Position numbers: made by a program. From an uncultured Spirochaetota bacterium (lineage in GTDB: Bacteria; Spirochaetota; Brevinematia; Brevinematales; JAOACQ01): a DNA stretch of 64,000 nt. Within the stretch, counting starts at the first letter, position 1, and every line of letters starts with the position of its first letter. Of the stretch, positions 27,001-33,000 are shown one piece after another. The stretch is taken from contig CAWAOD010000005.1 in the NCBI GenBank assembly GCA_963783575.1, positions 448,001-512,000 of the forward strand. Reading direction: 5' to 3'.

Positions 27001-30000
27001 TATATAGTAGCTCTTATGGAACCTCCGTGTTCCCAAGGTTGTTTGATTTTATTTTAATTCTTCAGGAAGTCTTTCCGGAATGGACAATTACGGCAGGACA
27101 ATAACCGGCAGATATACTTCGCATATGTAATATGATTCACCGTATGGTTATATCTGAACCTGAGTTCCTCTCCTTTCTTGCATATATAAACATTATTTTC
27201 CGGATCATATTGAAAATCATCAATTGTATACTGCCCTTTCTTCGCAGGCTTATGTCTGTCAGCGGTTTCAAACCTGCAATCGCGCTTCCTGAAATTCGTA
27301 TCCGGGATGACCGGTTTCATACCGTTTTGCGAAATATATTTCAGGTTCTTTTCGCTGAAATAATTGGTGTCCGCAGTGATTATTTTATCCTTTAAATCTT
27401 TTCCCAATTCTACTTTTGCTTTACGGATCATCCCTTTCAGGAATTCCCCCTCAGACCCGCTCCCAAAAGCTTCGGGATATACCACAACCTGATACTTCGA
27501 ATCCACTACAGAAAGTCCGTTGTAGCCCTGGATAACACCATGTGAACTCTTTATTTTCGCACTCTCGTTGTCAGTGACATTGGACTGCTTTTCACCATGC
27601 CGTGCCTTGTTTTTGGGTTTTTCACTTTCCAGAAACTTTTCTATCTTTTCCGCTTTCTTTAAAATCTTCTCGATCCGTGCCAGATCTTTTTCCTTATCCT
27701 TCTCAGGAAAACCGCCGGCCTGATCACGCTTTTCATGTTCATCAAGCATTTCCTTAACCAGGTTTTCCAGCTTCTCTTTTTTCTTCTTCAAATCCTTAAA
27801 TGTTCCGCTCCATTCCTTTGATGCATTTGACGATAGTTTGCACCCGTCCAGCGCGAACATATCCCCGCCTATGAGATTCAGTTCGTCACAAACCATTAAT
27901 ATATTCAGGAATACGGTATTTATCTCATTTTTCATCGATGATACAAAATCGGCGATGGAAGTAAAGTGCGGTATTGAATTGGCGGAAATGGCTTTGGCTA
28001 TAATATTCGTTTTACACAAATACTCGATTTCACGTGATGTAAAAATACCGCGGGAATAGCTGTAGAGTATTATTTTGAGCATAACCCGCGGATTATAAGC
28101 CGGGGCACCGGTAGCATCGTTCTTATACTTATTCTCAAAGATTTTAAGATCAATTCTGTTGTCAACAAGAAAACTGAGTGTATATTCAAATGTTCCCGGT
28201 ATAATCTGCTCATCGAATGAGACAGGTATGAGTTCCATTTGATCGTAATTAACTTTCTTATATCTTGCCATAATTGCTTTTACCTCTTGATTTTATTTCC
28301 AATATATTTTAAAGTATATACGATATTCTGTACATGAATGACGGACTTTTTCTACAGGCTCAACAGCGCGTAGACGCTGCGCTCCTCGGCTATCGCTAAG
28401 GCGACCGGCTGCGGCCTTAGCCTGCGGTGCTCGGGCTTCGCCAAATTTGCCTTTGGCACACATTTTTGCAAAGCAAAAAGATGTGACAAAGGCAAACTTC
28501 GTCTACGCGAACCGTTGTACGCCATATCGTCCAGCAAAATTGAATTATACAAATAATAATACAAATAATATGTACTTGACATCATAAATAAAAAATGATA
28601 TAGTTATTTATGTGGATTATTGATAGATCTGAAGAAATAATTAAATGGATTCAAGGATTGGATGATGATGCAAAGGAATCAATATTACAGCATTTGATTA
28701 TTCTAAAAAATATTGGACCTTCTTTAGGAAGACCATATGTTGACTTAATTGATGAAAGTAAACATAAGAATATGAAAGAATTAAGGGTTCAAAATAAAAA
28801 AAGAGCTTTTAGAATATTCTTTGCCTTTGATCCTGAAAGAAAAGCAATCTTATTAATTGGTGGAGATAAAAAAGGCAATAAAAATTTCTACAAAGAAATA
28901 ATACCAAAAGCAGATAATTTATATGACATACATTTAAAAGAATTGGAGAAAAAATATGAAAGAAAAAGTTAGTAAGAGAGACTTTTTAGATGAATTATCA
29001 AATACTCTCTCTCCTGAAAGAGTTGAAAGAGCTAAAACAAATGCTGATAAAGAAATATTTAAGATCAGATTGTCAGAATTAAGAAAACAAATGGGAGTTA
29101 AACAAGAAGAAATAAAATCCTTTTCTCAATCCAGTATATCCAGAATAGAATCAAGAAAAGATATGAAAGTTTCAACTCTTATTGAATATTTAGAAGATAT
29201 TGGAATGGGTCTTGAAATTAAAGTATATCCAAAAAAAAGAAGTAATAAAAACAAAGAAGTAACATTATTGCGAGTCTGATTCTACCGACAGCTGGACGAT
29301 ACGGCGTACAACGGCCTTGTAGAAAAAGTTAATTTCAGGTAATAATCCTCCATTCCCAAACAGTTTGTTTTTTTTGATCTGTCTGGAATCACTTTTTTTT
29401 TATAAAACCGGGCTGAATTTACAGGCAAAACTGTTTTTATTCCATCACTATGCCATTATATACCTCCATAGACCTGAATTTTCCCGATATTGTGCACAGT
29501 ATTATATAATACCCATTGAATATTCACTTTTCCCTTTCCCCTCAGCGTAAATCGATCCATACCTTTACATGCCCTTATATTCCCGAATACAGGCTCAACT
29601 ATAGCCATTCTTTTCGCATAAAGCTTTCTGCCTTCAGGCGTATCTATGAACTTTCTCATTTCGTCCGAGTAATGTCTGTTATCCGCATTCAATGGCCTTT
29701 GCAACATCGTGTTGCTGTCGAACTAACGTTCGACGGCCTTTTTGGCTATATAGTAGCTCTTATGGAACCTCCGTGTTCCCAAGGTTGTTTGATTTTATTT
29801 TAATTCTTCAGGAAGTCTTTCCGGAATGGACAATTACGGCAGGACAATAACCGGCAGATATACTTCGCATATGTAATATGATTCACCGTATGGTTATATC
29901 TGAACCTGAGTTCCTCTCCTTTCTTGCATATATAAACATTATTTTCCGGATCATATTGAAAATCATCAATTGTATACTGCCCTTTCTTCGCAGGCTTATG

Positions 30001-33000
30001 TCTGTCAGCGGTTTCAAACCTGCAATCGCGCTTCCTGAAATTCGTATCCGGGATGACCGGTTTCATACCGTTTTGCGAAATATATTTCAGGTTCTTTTCG
30101 CTGAAATAATTGGTGTCCGCAGTGATTATTTTATCCTTTAAATCTTTTCCCAATTCTACTTTTGCTTTACGGATCATCCCTTTCAGGAATTCCCCCTCAG
30201 ACCCGCTCCCAAAAGCTTCGGGATATACCACAACCTGATACTTCGAATCCACTACAGAAAGTCCGTTGTAGCCCTGGATAACACCATGTGAACTCTTTAT
30301 TTTCGCACTCTCGTTGTCAGTGACATTGGACTGCTTTTCACCATGCCGTGCCTTGTCTTTGGGTTTTTCACTTTCCAGAAACTTTTCTATCTTTTCAGCT
30401 TTCTTTAAAATCTTCTCGATCCGTGCCAGATCTTTTTCCTTATCCTTCTCAGGAAAACCGCCGGCCTGATCACGCTTTTCATGTTCATCAAGCATTTCCT
30501 TAACCAGGTTTTCCAGCTTCTCTTTTTTCTTCTTCAAATCCTTAAATGTTCCGCTCCATTCCTTTGATGCATTTGACGATAGTTTGCACCCGTCCAGCGC
30601 GAACATATCCCCGCCTATGAGATTCAGTTCATCGCAAACCATCAGTATATTAAGGAATATGGTATTTATCTCATTTTTCATCGAAGAAACAAAATCGGCG
30701 ATTGAAGTAAAGTGCGGTATTGAATTGGCGGAAATGGCTTTGGCTATAATATTCGTTTTACACAAATATTCGATTTCACGTGATGTAAAAATACCGCGGG
30801 AATAGCTGTAGAGTATTATCTTCAGCATAACCCGCGGATTATAAGCCGGGGCACCGGTAGCATCGTTCTTATACTTATTCTCAAAGATTTTAAGATCAAT
30901 TCTGCTGTCAACAAGAAAACTGAGTGTATATTCAAATGTTCCCGGTATAATCTGCTCATCGAATGAGACAGGTATGAGTTCCATTTGATCGTAATTAACT
31001 TTCTTATATCTTGCCATAATTGATTTCCCCTCTTGATTTTATTTACAATATATTTTAAAGTATAACCGTTATTTTGTACATGAATGACGGACTTTTTCTA
31101 CAGGCTCAACAGCGGCTATATCGCTCCGGTGCACGAAAAAACTTTTAAAGGCGTAACGGAGAAGAAGAGAAAAGTTTTTCCTGCGCTCCTCGGGTTCGCC
31201 CGTTTTTGCTCTAAGTTAAAAGAGGAAGGAGTTCAAATTGACTATGATAATTAATAAAATAGAAGTTATTGTTTACGGGCTCACCACATTTGCAAGCCTA
31301 AGCGCGCGGGGCTTGCGCTAAGGCTTGCAAACGTCGTATAGCCGCACCGTTGTACGAAATGGTGCAACGCTTTTTAATATAATTTAAGGAGTATTTGTGA
31401 ACAATGATCCAATGAAATCAGCTAGAGAAGATTATAAACCTACTCCATTTTACTTTTCTGAAGAAAATAATAATTTTAAAAGATATGTTGTTTATAACAA
31501 TTCATTTGAAATCATTAAACAACTATTAAAAGAAATAATAAGTTCCTATGATAATATAATAGAAATATTATTAAAAGATTCTCAAGGTTATGATGATAAA
31601 AAGGAAGAAGATATTTGGGACAGATATTATTCAGAAACCACAAAAGAAAACATTTTAAAATTACTTGAAATTCATTCAAAATATATTTTCTTTGATGGAA
31701 ATAATCAATTATGCATAAAAGATTCATCAACTGGTGATTATATTTCTTTTGATGATCATGGAATTTTATTTATTTATACTGATAAGTTTATTGATGACTT
31801 ATTATTAAAAAATGGAATAGAAAAAAAGAAAAATGAATTAATTTATGATCAAGGTCATTGGCATATAAGACCAAAAGATGCTGATGTATTAATGAATAAT
31901 TTTATTAAGGACTTACAATTAAAAAAGCTTGAAGATTAAACATGTTGCGCCACTTCGCACAACGGCCTTGTAGAAAAAGTTAATTTCAGGTAATAATCCT
32001 CCATTCCCAAACAGTTTGTTTTTTTTGATCTGTCTGGAATCACTTTTTTATATAAAACCGGGCTGAATTTACCGGCAAAACTGCTTTTATTCCATCACTA
32101 TGCCATTATATACCTCCATAGACCTGAATTTTCCCGATATTGTGCACAGTATTATATAATACCCATTGAATATTCACTTTTCCCTTTCCCCTCAGCGTAA
32201 ATCGATCCATACCTTTACATGCCCTTATATTCCCGAATACAGGCTCAACTATAGCCATTCTTTTCGCATAAAGCTTTCTGCCTTCAGGTGTATCTATGAA
32301 CTTTCTCATTTCGTCCGAGTAATGTCTGTTATCCGCATTCAATGGCCTTTGCAACATCGTGTTGCTGTCGAACTAACGTTCGACGGCCTTTTTGGCTATA
32401 TAGTAGCTCTTATGGAACCTCCGTGTTCCCAAGGTTGTTTGATTTTATTTTAATTCTTCAGGAAGTCTTTCTGGAATGGACAATTACGGCAGGCCGATAA
32501 CCGGCAGATATACTTCGCGTATGTAATGTGATTCACCGTATGGTTATATCTGAACCTGAGTTCCTCTCCTTTCTTGCATATATAAACATTATTTTCCGGA
32601 TCATATTGAAAATCATCAATTGTATACTGCCCTTTCTTCGCAGGCTTATGTCTGTCAGCGGTTTCAAACCTGCAATCGCGCTTCCTGAAATTCGTATCCG
32701 GGATGACCGGTTTCATACCGTTTTGCGAAATATATTTCAGGTTCTTTTCGCTGAAATAATTGGTGTCCGCAGTGATTATTTTATCCTTTAAATCTTTTCC
32801 CAATTCTACTTTTGCTTTACGGATCATCCCTTTCAGGAATTCCCCCTCAGACCCGCTCCCAAAAGCTTCGGGATATACCACAACCTGATACTTCGAATCC
32901 ACTACAGAAAGTCCGTTGTAGCCCTGGATAACACCATGTGAACTCTTTATTTTCGCACTCTCGTTGTCAGTGACATTGGACTGCTTTTCACCATGCCGTG

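Follow-up and report, generated by a model that had tools for sequence, protein, structure and literature searches.

Two kinds of mobile element are already known as attC specialists, the IS1111-attC elements and the group IIC-attC introns (PMC3001079). As described in that source, the IS1111-attC group (ISPa21, ISPst6 and their relatives, of the IS110/IS1111 family) consists of insertion sequences (ISs) specific to attC sites, which are inserted close to the 5′ end of the site and point against cassette transcription; the introns are likewise found in one orientation near the 5′ end, opposite to cassette transcription. In the IS1182 family, IS1272/TnSha1 of staphylococci is described as targeting a DNA secondary structure (hairpins, terminators), the same hairpin being struck repeatedly (PMC4923244; PMC5678879), and the 2015 review by Siguier, as PMC4923244 presents it, mentions only that some IS1182 members target palindromes. 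In the literature searched, we found no report of an attC or integron link for this family. This agrees with a preliminary description of the locus analysed here, which regarded such a target choice as new to the family. The novelty concerns attC targeting in the IS1182 family; hairpin targeting in the family and attC targeting by two other kinds of element were known before.

Here we analyse an IS from the cassette arrays of a Spirochaetota genome. Its IS1182-family DDE transposase is likely to have a single target, the AAC/GTT triplet in the R box at the base of attC-type hairpins, where it would cut with a 3-bp stagger.

The element, its ends and its transposase

The copy under study occupies positions 29313–31107 of the window, the whole 64-kb stretch of DNA that was analysed, and carries its transposase on the minus strand. 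A blastn search of the genome with window positions 29101–31300 returned the same eight copies as the preliminary description, one of them truncated (C5:474559, C5:477305, which is the copy under study, C5:479956, truncated, C10:75663, C10:80791, C9:386217 and, on the minus strand, C16:115949 and C4:21503), together with eight solo ends. Compared with the blastn coordinates, the element proper starts 8 nt further in on the left and stops 4 nt further in on the right, and the size first given as 1.8 kb is exactly 1795 bp. Identity to the copy under study is 96–99% for six copies and 87–96% for the C4 copy, slightly wider than the 90–99% reported earlier. Comparison of the copies gave termini that read GGCC(T/A)TGTAGAAAAAG ... 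CTTTTTCTACAGGCTC, with imperfect terminal inverted repeats of ~16 nt; in the copy under study, the box-side end begins GGCCTTGTAGAAAAAG and the arm-side end closes CTTTTTCTACAGGCTC. A 3-bp AAC stands on both flanks in 7/7 full copies. Both the inverted repeats and such a short direct duplication of the target are features of the IS1182 family, and the size of the element falls within the family range (ISfinder).

The transposase confirms this assignment. It is unbroken (494 aa) only in the C16 copy, as had been noted before, is split in six of the eight copies, and is further broken in the C4 copy. In the copy under study, a ~105-nt member of a dispersed repeat family (29702–29806, minus strand) has taken the place of 28 nt of the gene and left it in two pieces, a first part of 405 aa with DUF772 and the start of the DDE domain (29800–31017, minus strand) and a second of 83 aa with the end of DDE_Tnp_1_6, which bears the invariant glutamate of the IVEPVF motif (29456–29707, minus strand). 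The intact C16 protein scores above the Pfam cut-offs for PF05598 (DUF772), PF01609 (DDE_Tnp_1) and PF13751 (DDE_Tnp_1_6), and the NCBIfam model of IS1182-family transposases, NF033551, covers residues 8–488 of 494 with 278.6 bits against a cut-off of 270. The D and E residues do not vary among 15 relatives. The IS is thus a real element and a member of the IS1182 family, as first proposed. Membership of the IS1111-attC group was considered and rejected, although the element behaves like that group: there is no DEDD transposase, and the protein matches IS1182/DDE models only.

Copies and their flanks

The position of the element, described earlier as directly after an inverse-core-type box and before a left arm, was the same throughout. 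At all 16 box-side ends, from copies and solo ends together, the bases immediately before the IS are the AAC with which a CGTACAAC-type box finishes. Among the eight copies this box is CGTACAAC in five and CGCACAAC, GCGCAGAAC and CGCCTAAC once each. Each of the eight arm-side ends is followed by AAC and the left arm of an attC-type palindrome of 160–253 nt. The repetition of the box end at the right end of the IS, remarked on earlier, is the AAC duplication of the seven full copies, all of which continue into left-arm sequence. Around the copy under study, the left AAC (29310–29312) is formed by the final three bases of an orphaned box CGTACAAC (29305–29312), and the right AAC (31108–31110) makes, with the last four bases of the IS, GCTCAAC (31104–31110), a consensus RYYYAAC box adjoining the left arm. 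As IS end and triplet rebuild a consensus box on each side, the hairpin remains formally whole. A matching right arm and GTT box follow 160–250 nt downstream in five of the seven full copies; the C4 copy has a weak right arm, and the C16 copy, the sole intact one, is followed by only ~12 nt of left arm and no recognisable site.

Other parts of the window repeat this picture. A second full copy (26567–28361, minus strand; C5:474567–476361) is flanked by AAC at 26564–26566 and 28362–28364, with the remainder of its site at 28358–28520. The truncated copy (31964–33338, minus strand; C5:479964–481338) begins after box CGCACAAC and has lost its transposase-start end and most of the site, the right part of which is left at 33337–33411. 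A solo end on the plus strand, comprising the first ~78 nt of the box-side end, directly follows CACACAAC (36304–36381), and a degenerate one follows GCGCACAAC (33970–34011, plus strand). Elsewhere, a MITE of ~110 bp at C16:~118790 has perfect ends and AAC on both sides.

Sites were listed with nhmmer profiles of both arms, which found ~33 right arms at E ≤ 1 (26 at E ≤ 0.001). Among the ~33, the left arm is directly preceded by an IS or MITE end in six (one being the C16 MITE), one is abutted by a truncated IS and 17 are uninterrupted. Structure-only genome scans gave no excess of sites over reversed-sequence controls (144 vs 224; 168 vs 263) and were left out of genome-wide counts. As a control, tblastn located 47 transposase-like loci in the genome. 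The eight IS copies fall in six merged loci, 6/6 of which lie within 1.5 kb of a site arm. The other 41 loci (25–32% identity) lie far from sites in 40 cases. The earlier statement that no other transposase lies within 1.5 kb of a site therefore holds with one exception, C16:113347–114714, a different IS within a site interior, not at a box.

A pattern of this kind could also arise passively, if cassettes or array segments with one ancestral insertion had been duplicated and shuffled without any target choice. The copies at C5:474567 and C9:386225 do lie in a duplicated segment, with 300 nt of upstream flank in common at 99.7%, and five solo ends in the C13 array have common downstream sequence, a sign that end and site may have been copied as a unit. 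The IS copies are moreover mosaics from recombination with one another, so some flank combinations arose without transposition. However, the 16 box-side ends have 15 different upstream flanks (at least five had been counted before), and at E ≤ 1e-10 the only other paralogy among these flanks is one 76% cassette pair whose partner is empty. There are at least five different downstream sites, and relatives at 45–88% protein identity in four other genomes, with dozens more in metagenomes, use the same triplet. Spread by cassette duplication, which the preliminary description had allowed for some copies, accounts for the C5/C9 pair only; as a general explanation it is largely refuted, and we give it next to no credence. 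We saw no transposition event, no circle junction and no orthologous empty site; a single paralogous one is 76% identical. The one public sequencing run with the element yielded fragments only.

Target sites and the adjacent recombinase

An array with uninterrupted attC-type sites and plus-strand cassette ORFs extends from 10726 to 25054 of the window (sites at 10726–10978, 12328–12549, 13136–13386, 16893–17052, 19198–19416, 20302–20553, 21192–21442 and 24894–25054). The ORFs stop 16–120 nt before each box, and the next begins 34–42 nt past the GTT box; from this layout an array of co-oriented small ORFs, each followed by a site, was called. Cassette contents are typical, namely unknowns and a Gp49/HigB-type toxin pair. 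The site downstream of the IS under study (31104–31355, plus strand, 252 nt) comprises the surrogate box, left arm GCGGCTATA, a structured interior, right arm TATAGCCGC, an ACC spacer and the box GTTGTAC. Target boxes are of the CGTACAAC / GTTGTACG type with invariant AAC and GTT, in keeping with the palindrome and boxes of attC, and arms of 9–11 bp are paired in 10 window sites. Left arms vary (GCGGCTATA, GGCATAGCTG, CAGCTTAGCG, GCGCGTAGACGC).

These sites are attC-like but non-canonical, which qualifies the term attC-type used from the outset. Known attC sites are 57–141 bp long, with unpaired central spacers of 5–6 nt and extrahelical bases on the L″ arm (PMC5027507). The sites here measure 160–253 nt and have spacers of 1 and 3 nt, and their multibranched interior makes extrahelical bases unreadable. 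An IntI-like tyrosine-recombinase gene with two frame breaks (9129–10178, plus strand), for which the best solved relative is VchIntIA, lies immediately upstream of the first site. An adjacent integrase with the IntI-specific additional domain was not found: the genome's best match, a broken gene, reaches 100.5 bits where the cut-off is 265. An intact homologue in a related genome (G011) scores 213.7 bits, but its match falls into two stretches with model positions ~172–237 missing, and the recombinases of three more genomes (G174, G351, G309) likewise lack the insert. The TIGR02249 cut-off was reached by no recombinase in this genome or the eight relatives searched.

One could conclude that the sites are another class of long palindromic repeats and not integron attC, so that "attC-specific" would be the wrong name here for an IS that is nonetheless site-specific. 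The length of the sites, an unpaired spacer of 1 nt instead of 3 nt, the absence of any Rfam match and the recombinase candidates below cut-off and without insert all point that way. Nevertheless, we consider this reading unlikely: every co-oriented small ORF is followed by the attC plan of AAC box, left arm, right arm and GTT box, folding of the single-stranded DNA yields the closing stem (z about −4), the array begins right after the IntI-like gene, and relatives of the IS use the same triplet of canonical attC hairpins, with boxes GCCTAAC / GTTAGGT in G174.

Relatives in other genomes and metagenomes

The four Spirochaetota genomes whose relatives occupy the same junction with AAC are G001, of the same genus (88% protein identity); G011, of another genus, with relatives at 67% and 68% and six identical copies at 56% with six different left flanks; G351 (48%); and G174 (45%, three copies). 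One or two of the six 56% copies in G011 lack a recognisable site, the relative in G175 (50%) has the opposite triplet and an unclear site, and that in G309 is truncated. Among metagenome relatives, GTT stands on both flanks in 27 of 80 loci, many of them beside canonical RYYYAAC...GTTRRRY hairpins, and the rebuilt empty sites fold as such hairpins. In a shuffle test, the partner arm was matched by ≤2 of 200 shuffles in 10 of 23 testable GTT loci, compared with 0 of 8 other-triplet loci; the remaining 13 GTT loci did not pass. Far from being an isolated oddity, the element thus belongs to a wide IS1182 subgroup. Members of a large metagenomic clade seem to insert at the core (R′) box, their transposase pointing in the sense direction, so the inverse-core end that the preliminary description named as the target applies to this lineage but not across the group.

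A derived or sister clade carries other 3-bp duplications (GCT, CCA, GGA, GAG, AGC), which shows that the AAC/GTT triplet does not belong to the element but is a genuine duplication of the target, produced by the transposase. This bears on the idea that the tyrosine recombinase of the array places the element like a cassette, with a crossover at G/TT that leaves GTT on both sides and no role for the transposase in site choice. The insertion point is the triplet of integron integrase strand exchange (PMC5027507), and if the IS ends were joined across a 3-nt spacer, a palindrome with box-like sequences would result. However, sister lineages duplicate unrelated 3 bp at non-hairpin targets, as a staggered transposase cut predicts; the element has no attC-like site of its own, and the recombinase gene beside the array is broken. 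Placement by the recombinase is thus very unlikely.

The transposase could instead recognise a short stretch of duplex DNA, made up of the R-box consensus through its final AAC and a few bases beyond, and not the folded hairpin, in which case the attC link would follow from where that sequence occurs. CGTACAAC or a close variant precedes the IS at 13 of the 16 box-side ends, and in metagenome relatives the flank after the duplicated GTT conforms to GTTRRRY. Of the two symmetric arms, only the one with the 1-nt spacer is used (16/16 ends, 0 at the ACC-spacer arm), which points to sequence context being read. Yet AAC alone is invariant across the 16 boxes, the left arms differ, and the canonical attC sites of the relatives have almost no common sequence outside the boxes; IS1272, of the same family, targets hairpins without a sequence consensus in the account of PMC4923244. 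Recognition of sequence only is, in our view, a minor but real possibility.

Discussion

In the mechanism that we favour, a 3-bp staggered cut at the conserved AAC/GTT triplet would duplicate the triplet, and the transposase would read the hairpin, or its inverted-repeat sequence, together with the triplet. In this lineage, insertion would take place at the box after the cassette ORF (the inverse-core side) and in a fixed orientation, the transposase start towards the hairpin interior and the gene antisense to the cassettes; this orientation is the one observed. GAGCC on the hairpin-side terminus and the duplicated triplet would then form the consensus box GCTCAAC. The palindrome would keep two R boxes, and the IS would end up within the cassette, between the ORF and its site, where it could travel along with the cassette. 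Interrupted sites may still recombine, and split copies were presumably moved in trans by the one intact copy, or by a two-piece enzyme.

This differs from each of the described systems. The element shares its position and orientation at the site with the IS1111-attC group. In place of the DEDD transposase of the IS1111-attC group, for which RNA-guided target choice has been reported (IS1111/IS110; PMC11187229), the element has an IS1182 DDE enzyme, a 3-bp duplication of AAC/GTT and termini that rebuild the box. IS1272 is described as having no sequence specificity, making no duplication, deleting part of the stem and inserting in both orientations (PMC4923244; PMC5678879); here there is one defined triplet, no target bases are lost and orientation is fixed. 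Blunt deletion of the IS1272 type was not found: 3 bp are duplicated, and nothing is missing from the rebuilt sites. Group IIC-attC introns, unlike the element, are retroelements that reverse-splice into the bottom strand, without inverted repeats or target duplication.

A wider reading, which we hold no more firmly than its opposite, is that a large and old IS1182 subgroup reads folded or palindromic attC sites and inserts at the integrase strand-exchange triplet. Its GAGNC termini would restore the R box, the site would stay recombinogenic and the IS would ride inside or at the head of cassettes, lineages having fixed different arms and orientations (inverse core/antisense, core/sense, inverse core/sense).

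If this wider reading is true, the element stands as a third class of attC specialist, independent of the other two. A DDE IS of a third unrelated family on the triplet common to all attC sites, rebuilding the box that it splits, would be a striking convergence and would offer a tractable system for how a classical transposase reads a structured recombination site. About half of the cassette-associated transposases in plant microbiomes were assigned to IS5 by BLASTp, which was not read there as targeting (PMC11089894); the IS1182 subgroup may contribute to this IS5-like signal in cassette arrays. Such elements break and reshuffle cassette arrays, as seen here in the mosaic copies and one duplicated array segment, and may move with cassettes. 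Standard attC models may overlook recombination sites that the flanks of these elements reveal. On the wider reading, the IS could serve as a probe for unrecognised attC-type sites, such as those of 160–253 nt in Spirochaetota, where the recombinases are IntI-like but lack the IntI insert.

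Insertion sequence, ends, and split transposase

With window 29101-31300 as the blastn query, we recovered eight copies of the 1.8-kb element in the genome, at the eight places listed in a preliminary description of this stretch; one of them, C5:479956, is truncated. The identity of 90-99% given there covers the six copies that match the window copy at 96-99%, but not the one on contig C4 (87-96%). When flanks and ends were compared across copies, the element proper was placed at window 29313-31107 (1795 bp), and the earlier span of 29305-31111 does contain it but also takes in the left box CGTACAAC and the right duplicated AAC. 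The termini, GGCCTTGTAGAAAAAG at the start and CTTTTTCTACAGGCTC at the finish, are imperfect inverted repeats, and AAC flanks both ends in all seven full copies. The transposase gene lies on the minus strand of the window. As had been reported, it is intact in a single copy, that of contig C16, where it encodes an unbroken protein of 494 aa. With 278.6 bits, this protein exceeds the cut-off of the NCBIfam IS1182 model (270), and it contains the DUF772, DDE_Tnp_1, and DDE_Tnp_1_6 domains, in agreement with the original family assignment.

In six copies, a member of a dispersed repeat of ~105 nt (window 29702-29806) replaces 28 nt of the transposase gene and introduces a stop codon and a new ATG, and the catalytic glutamate motif is located on an 83-aa piece. 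This split version has at least five different flanks and has therefore probably moved, in trans or as a two-piece enzyme. The repeat belongs to a family of ~100 nt with three short hairpins, for which blastn gave at least 30 hits over 12 contigs, a number of them in tandem (other members are found, for example, at C9:320203-320388 and C5:340752-340996). The 105-nt insert gave no match in Rfam at E<=1, and the window gave none at the gathering threshold.

Target sites, cassette array, and recombinase

As repeat family D8 makes clear, the IS is followed by the left arm of a long, imperfectly palindromic site. A site reads as an AAC-ending box (CGTACAAC or variants), 1 nt, the left arm (e.g., GCGGCTATA), a structured interior, the right arm (TATAGCCGC), the spacer ACC, and a GTT-starting box (GTTGTACG). 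Between 10726 and 31355 the window contains ten of these sites, 160-253 nt long; a plus-strand ORF precedes each, and the next ORF begins 34-42 nt beyond it. The arms form a closing stem in single-stranded DNA folds (z-scores -4.2 and -3.6); long palindromes were not seen when rebuilt empty sites were folded with only 25 nt of upstream flank. Profiles of both arms found ~33 right arms over seven contigs at E<=1. Of these ~33 sites, 17 have an uninterrupted left arm, six have an IS or MITE end plus AAC directly before the left arm, one adjoins the truncated IS, and the remainder have no recognizable left arm. Structure-only genome scans for AAC...GTT palindromes were dropped, as their hits did not outnumber those in reversed-sequence controls (144 vs 224; 168 vs 263); just the clearly clustered window hits were kept, and none was used for genome-wide counts.

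Most window sites have in common a conserved interior of ~190 nt (e.g., 20302-20553; repeat families D1, D2, and D6). Within it are a GGAG resembling a ribosome-binding site, a short frame that opens with ATG, and a strong inner hairpin. Tandem repeats of 24 nt (TATGGGAAA-type units) adjoin sites in two arrays, at window 16762-16842 and after C9:389463. A cassette ORF of 424 aa (window 25165-26439) has an HNH_2 match, and its three 129-nt tandem repeats (25972-26437) encode DnaJ-type CXXCXGXG zinc fingers.

Just upstream of the first site lies a broken tyrosine-recombinase gene (window 9129-10178). Its intact homologue in a related genome has 353 aa; the models closest to it are those of integron integrase (213.7, cut-off 265) and XerA (215.8, cut-off 220), and it reaches neither cut-off. 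The TIGR02249 match of this homologue falls in two segments that leave out the IntI-specific region, and its best solved relative is VchIntIA. The same recombinase type is present in three more Spirochaetota carrying relatives of the IS. These IntI-like recombinases beside arrays (L037:1162-2223 on the minus strand, L129, L130, and L131, in addition to the window gene) are 353-394 aa long, with an N-terminal extension and without the IntI-specific insert, and score under the cut-offs of TIGR02249 and NF040815. Intact genes are present in G011, a genome of another genus, and in the Spirochaetota genomes G174 and G309; the window gene is broken, and the match in a further genome, G351, contains one TAG. 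Together with the arrays, these recombinases may represent a distinct integron-like system of Spirochaetota. The sites follow the attC plan in an integron-like array, but their length, spacers, and integrase are non-canonical, and we therefore call them attC-type rather than attC.

Specificity and spread in the genome

The ends were counted by searching the genome with the two 70-nt IS ends. The box-side end has 16 copies, eight in IS copies and eight as solo remnants, all of them directly preceded by AAC in a box, in 15 different flanks; the arm-side end has eight copies, each followed by AAC and left-arm sequence (8/8). The initial observation that copies lie at the inverse-core box, before the left arm, is thus borne out. 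At another site, the same point is occupied by a MITE of ~110 bp, whose ends are perfect and flanked by AAC on either side. The contrast drawn earlier, in which other transposases keep away from such sites, holds for 40 of 41 further transposase-like loci (tblastn, 25-32% identity), which are >3 kb from any site arm, but fails for one, a different IS within a site interior, not at the box.

A second abundant IS, with a transposase 25% identical and ends containing CACAGTCTG, has ~30 loci, including a copy within an attC-type site interior (C16:113140-114870) and a window copy away from the array (58375-59742). In the array of contig C13 (C13:203440-214100), the box of five sites is followed at once by the opening 45-70 nt of the IS end, joined to a downstream sequence that the five have in common; these solo ends are either an IS remnant copied along with its site or a chimeric MITE.

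It had been feared that copies spread by duplication of cassettes together with the IS. This applies to one pair, the only one with a shared upstream flank, in which a run of cassettes has been duplicated along with the IS copy it contains (C5:472000-476400 and C9:383900-388200; the downstream flanks differ), but not to the 15 flanks seen at 16 ends. The IS copies are also mosaics of each other; recombination between copies has therefore reshuffled flanks, and the IS serves as homology for array reshuffling. Such recombination cannot explain 15 flanks. An exchange at the triplet as the source of the differing downstream flanks of C5:474567 and C9:386225 was dropped because these copies are internal mosaics and homologous recombination inside the IS suffices. 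When the left flanks of the 16 ends were searched against the genome for empty sites, only one 76% paralogue was found, its site uninterrupted. The cassette upstream of the window copy was not found in G001, a same-genus MAG, or in G011, save for one weak 60-nt match. In the contigs of the one public sequencing run containing the element, which contained 16% of sampled words, the joint across the IS was not found, only IS fragments with two different right flanks.

Relatives in genomes and metagenomes

G001 carries an 88% copy between a box and AAC-left arm, with the right arm and a GTT box downstream. In G011, AAC flanks both ends of every copy (67%, 68%, and six identical ones at 56%), and the six have six different left flanks, four to five of them at recognizable sites. 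The same junction is found in two more distant Spirochaetota, at 48% and at 45% (three copies), one of them with the boxes GCCTAAC and GTTAGGT. Two other Spirochaetota relatives do not clearly show it, one being truncated and one having the opposite triplet.

From metagenomes, we took 80 loci at 39-52% identity, the top-ranking 80 among at least 564 matches and a non-random sample; terminal repeats were assigned by script in 66 of the 80, some wrongly. Among these best 80 of at least 564, the flanking triplets are GTT/GTT in 27 loci, AAC/AAC in five, and other identical triplets (GCT, CCA, GGA, GAG, GGT, AGC) in 11. Empty sites reconstructed for the GTT group fold into RYYYAAC...GTTRRRY hairpins of 43-130 nt. 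In the same best 80 of at least 564, the partner arm was reached by <=2 of 200 shuffles in 10 of 23 testable GTT loci, against 0/8 loci with other triplets and 0/2 AAC loci. A strict search of the flanks for further attC hairpins (box match >=6/7) gave four in 33 kb against one in the control and was set aside for its low sensitivity. Locus L104 has a second hairpin 650 nt downstream.

In a tree of 50 transposases plus outgroup (quick IQ-TREE, SH-aLRT support only), with rows from the top-ranking 80 among at least 564 matches, the GTT state occupies basal lineages, including the clade of the genome under study, and 20 of 21 rows of a further clade, while other triplets form one derived clade. 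This sister clade with its other triplets identifies the duplication as the transposase's staggered cut. In the derived clade (L051-L058, L088, L096, L110, L115, and L125), ends start with GAGACTGTCGAAAAAG and 3-bp duplications (GCT, CCA, GGA, GAG, AGC) occur at targets without a hairpin partner; it is a switch of target. Three loci (L082, L087, and L105), whose ends start with GAGG(A/T)TGCAGAAAAAG and are flanked by AAC/AAC on the transposase strand, apparently use the same box with the transposase in the orientation opposite to the window's lineage.

On the transposase sense strand, a site reads AAC arm, GTT arm, then IS, and the transposase start therefore faces the hairpin. According to PMC5027507, the top strand of an attC site carries its extrahelical bases in the AAC arm, and we applied this rule to the metagenome arm alignments. 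In ~10 metagenome sites the unpaired bases fall, on the transposase strand, in the AAC arm; by this rule the IS would be at core box R', its gene running in sense, and flanking ORFs agree in most of them. In L060, L062, and L063 they are on the GTT arm, which by the same rule gives the inverse core R'' and an antisense gene; ORF orientation gives that assignment in the genome under study. The AAC/AAC lineage appears to use the inverse core with its gene in sense, and arm choice seems to be fixed per lineage.

Discussion

Across 45-100% protein identity, copies and relatives agree in their ends, 3-bp duplication, exclusive position, and orientation. Joined to the triplet, the hairpin-side terminus (GAGCC; GGCTC on the other strand) reads GCTCAAC, which fits RYYYAAC perfectly. 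After insertion, the palindrome retains two boxes, and the old box is orphaned beside the cassette ORF. The transposase would read hairpin and triplet, in line with IS1272, a member of the same family for which PMC4923244 and PMC5678879 describe hairpin targeting. An interrupted site may still recombine and, if it does, the IS would travel inside a cassette.

According to PMC3001079, IS1111-attC elements and group IIC-attC introns insert near the 5' end of the site in antisense, and our element resembles both in this position and orientation. For cassette-associated transposases of plant microbiomes, PMC11089894 gives IS5 as the commonest family (49%) and does not put forward targeting. An IS1182-family element described as attC-specific was not found in the literature searched, which covered few subscription papers, with ISfinder and TnPedia outside its scope; this agrees with the preliminary statement that attC targeting is not known for the family. 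The attC-specific reading itself is supported and widens to a whole IS1182 subgroup, but the inverse-core end is apparently specific to lineages and the sites are attC-type. Sequence comparison thus supports the element as a probable attC-specialist mobile element and hairpin-targeting member of the IS1182 family. Both kinds are already known, attC specialists on the one hand and hairpin-targeting IS1182 members on the other; what would be new is an IS1182-family element as an attC specialist.
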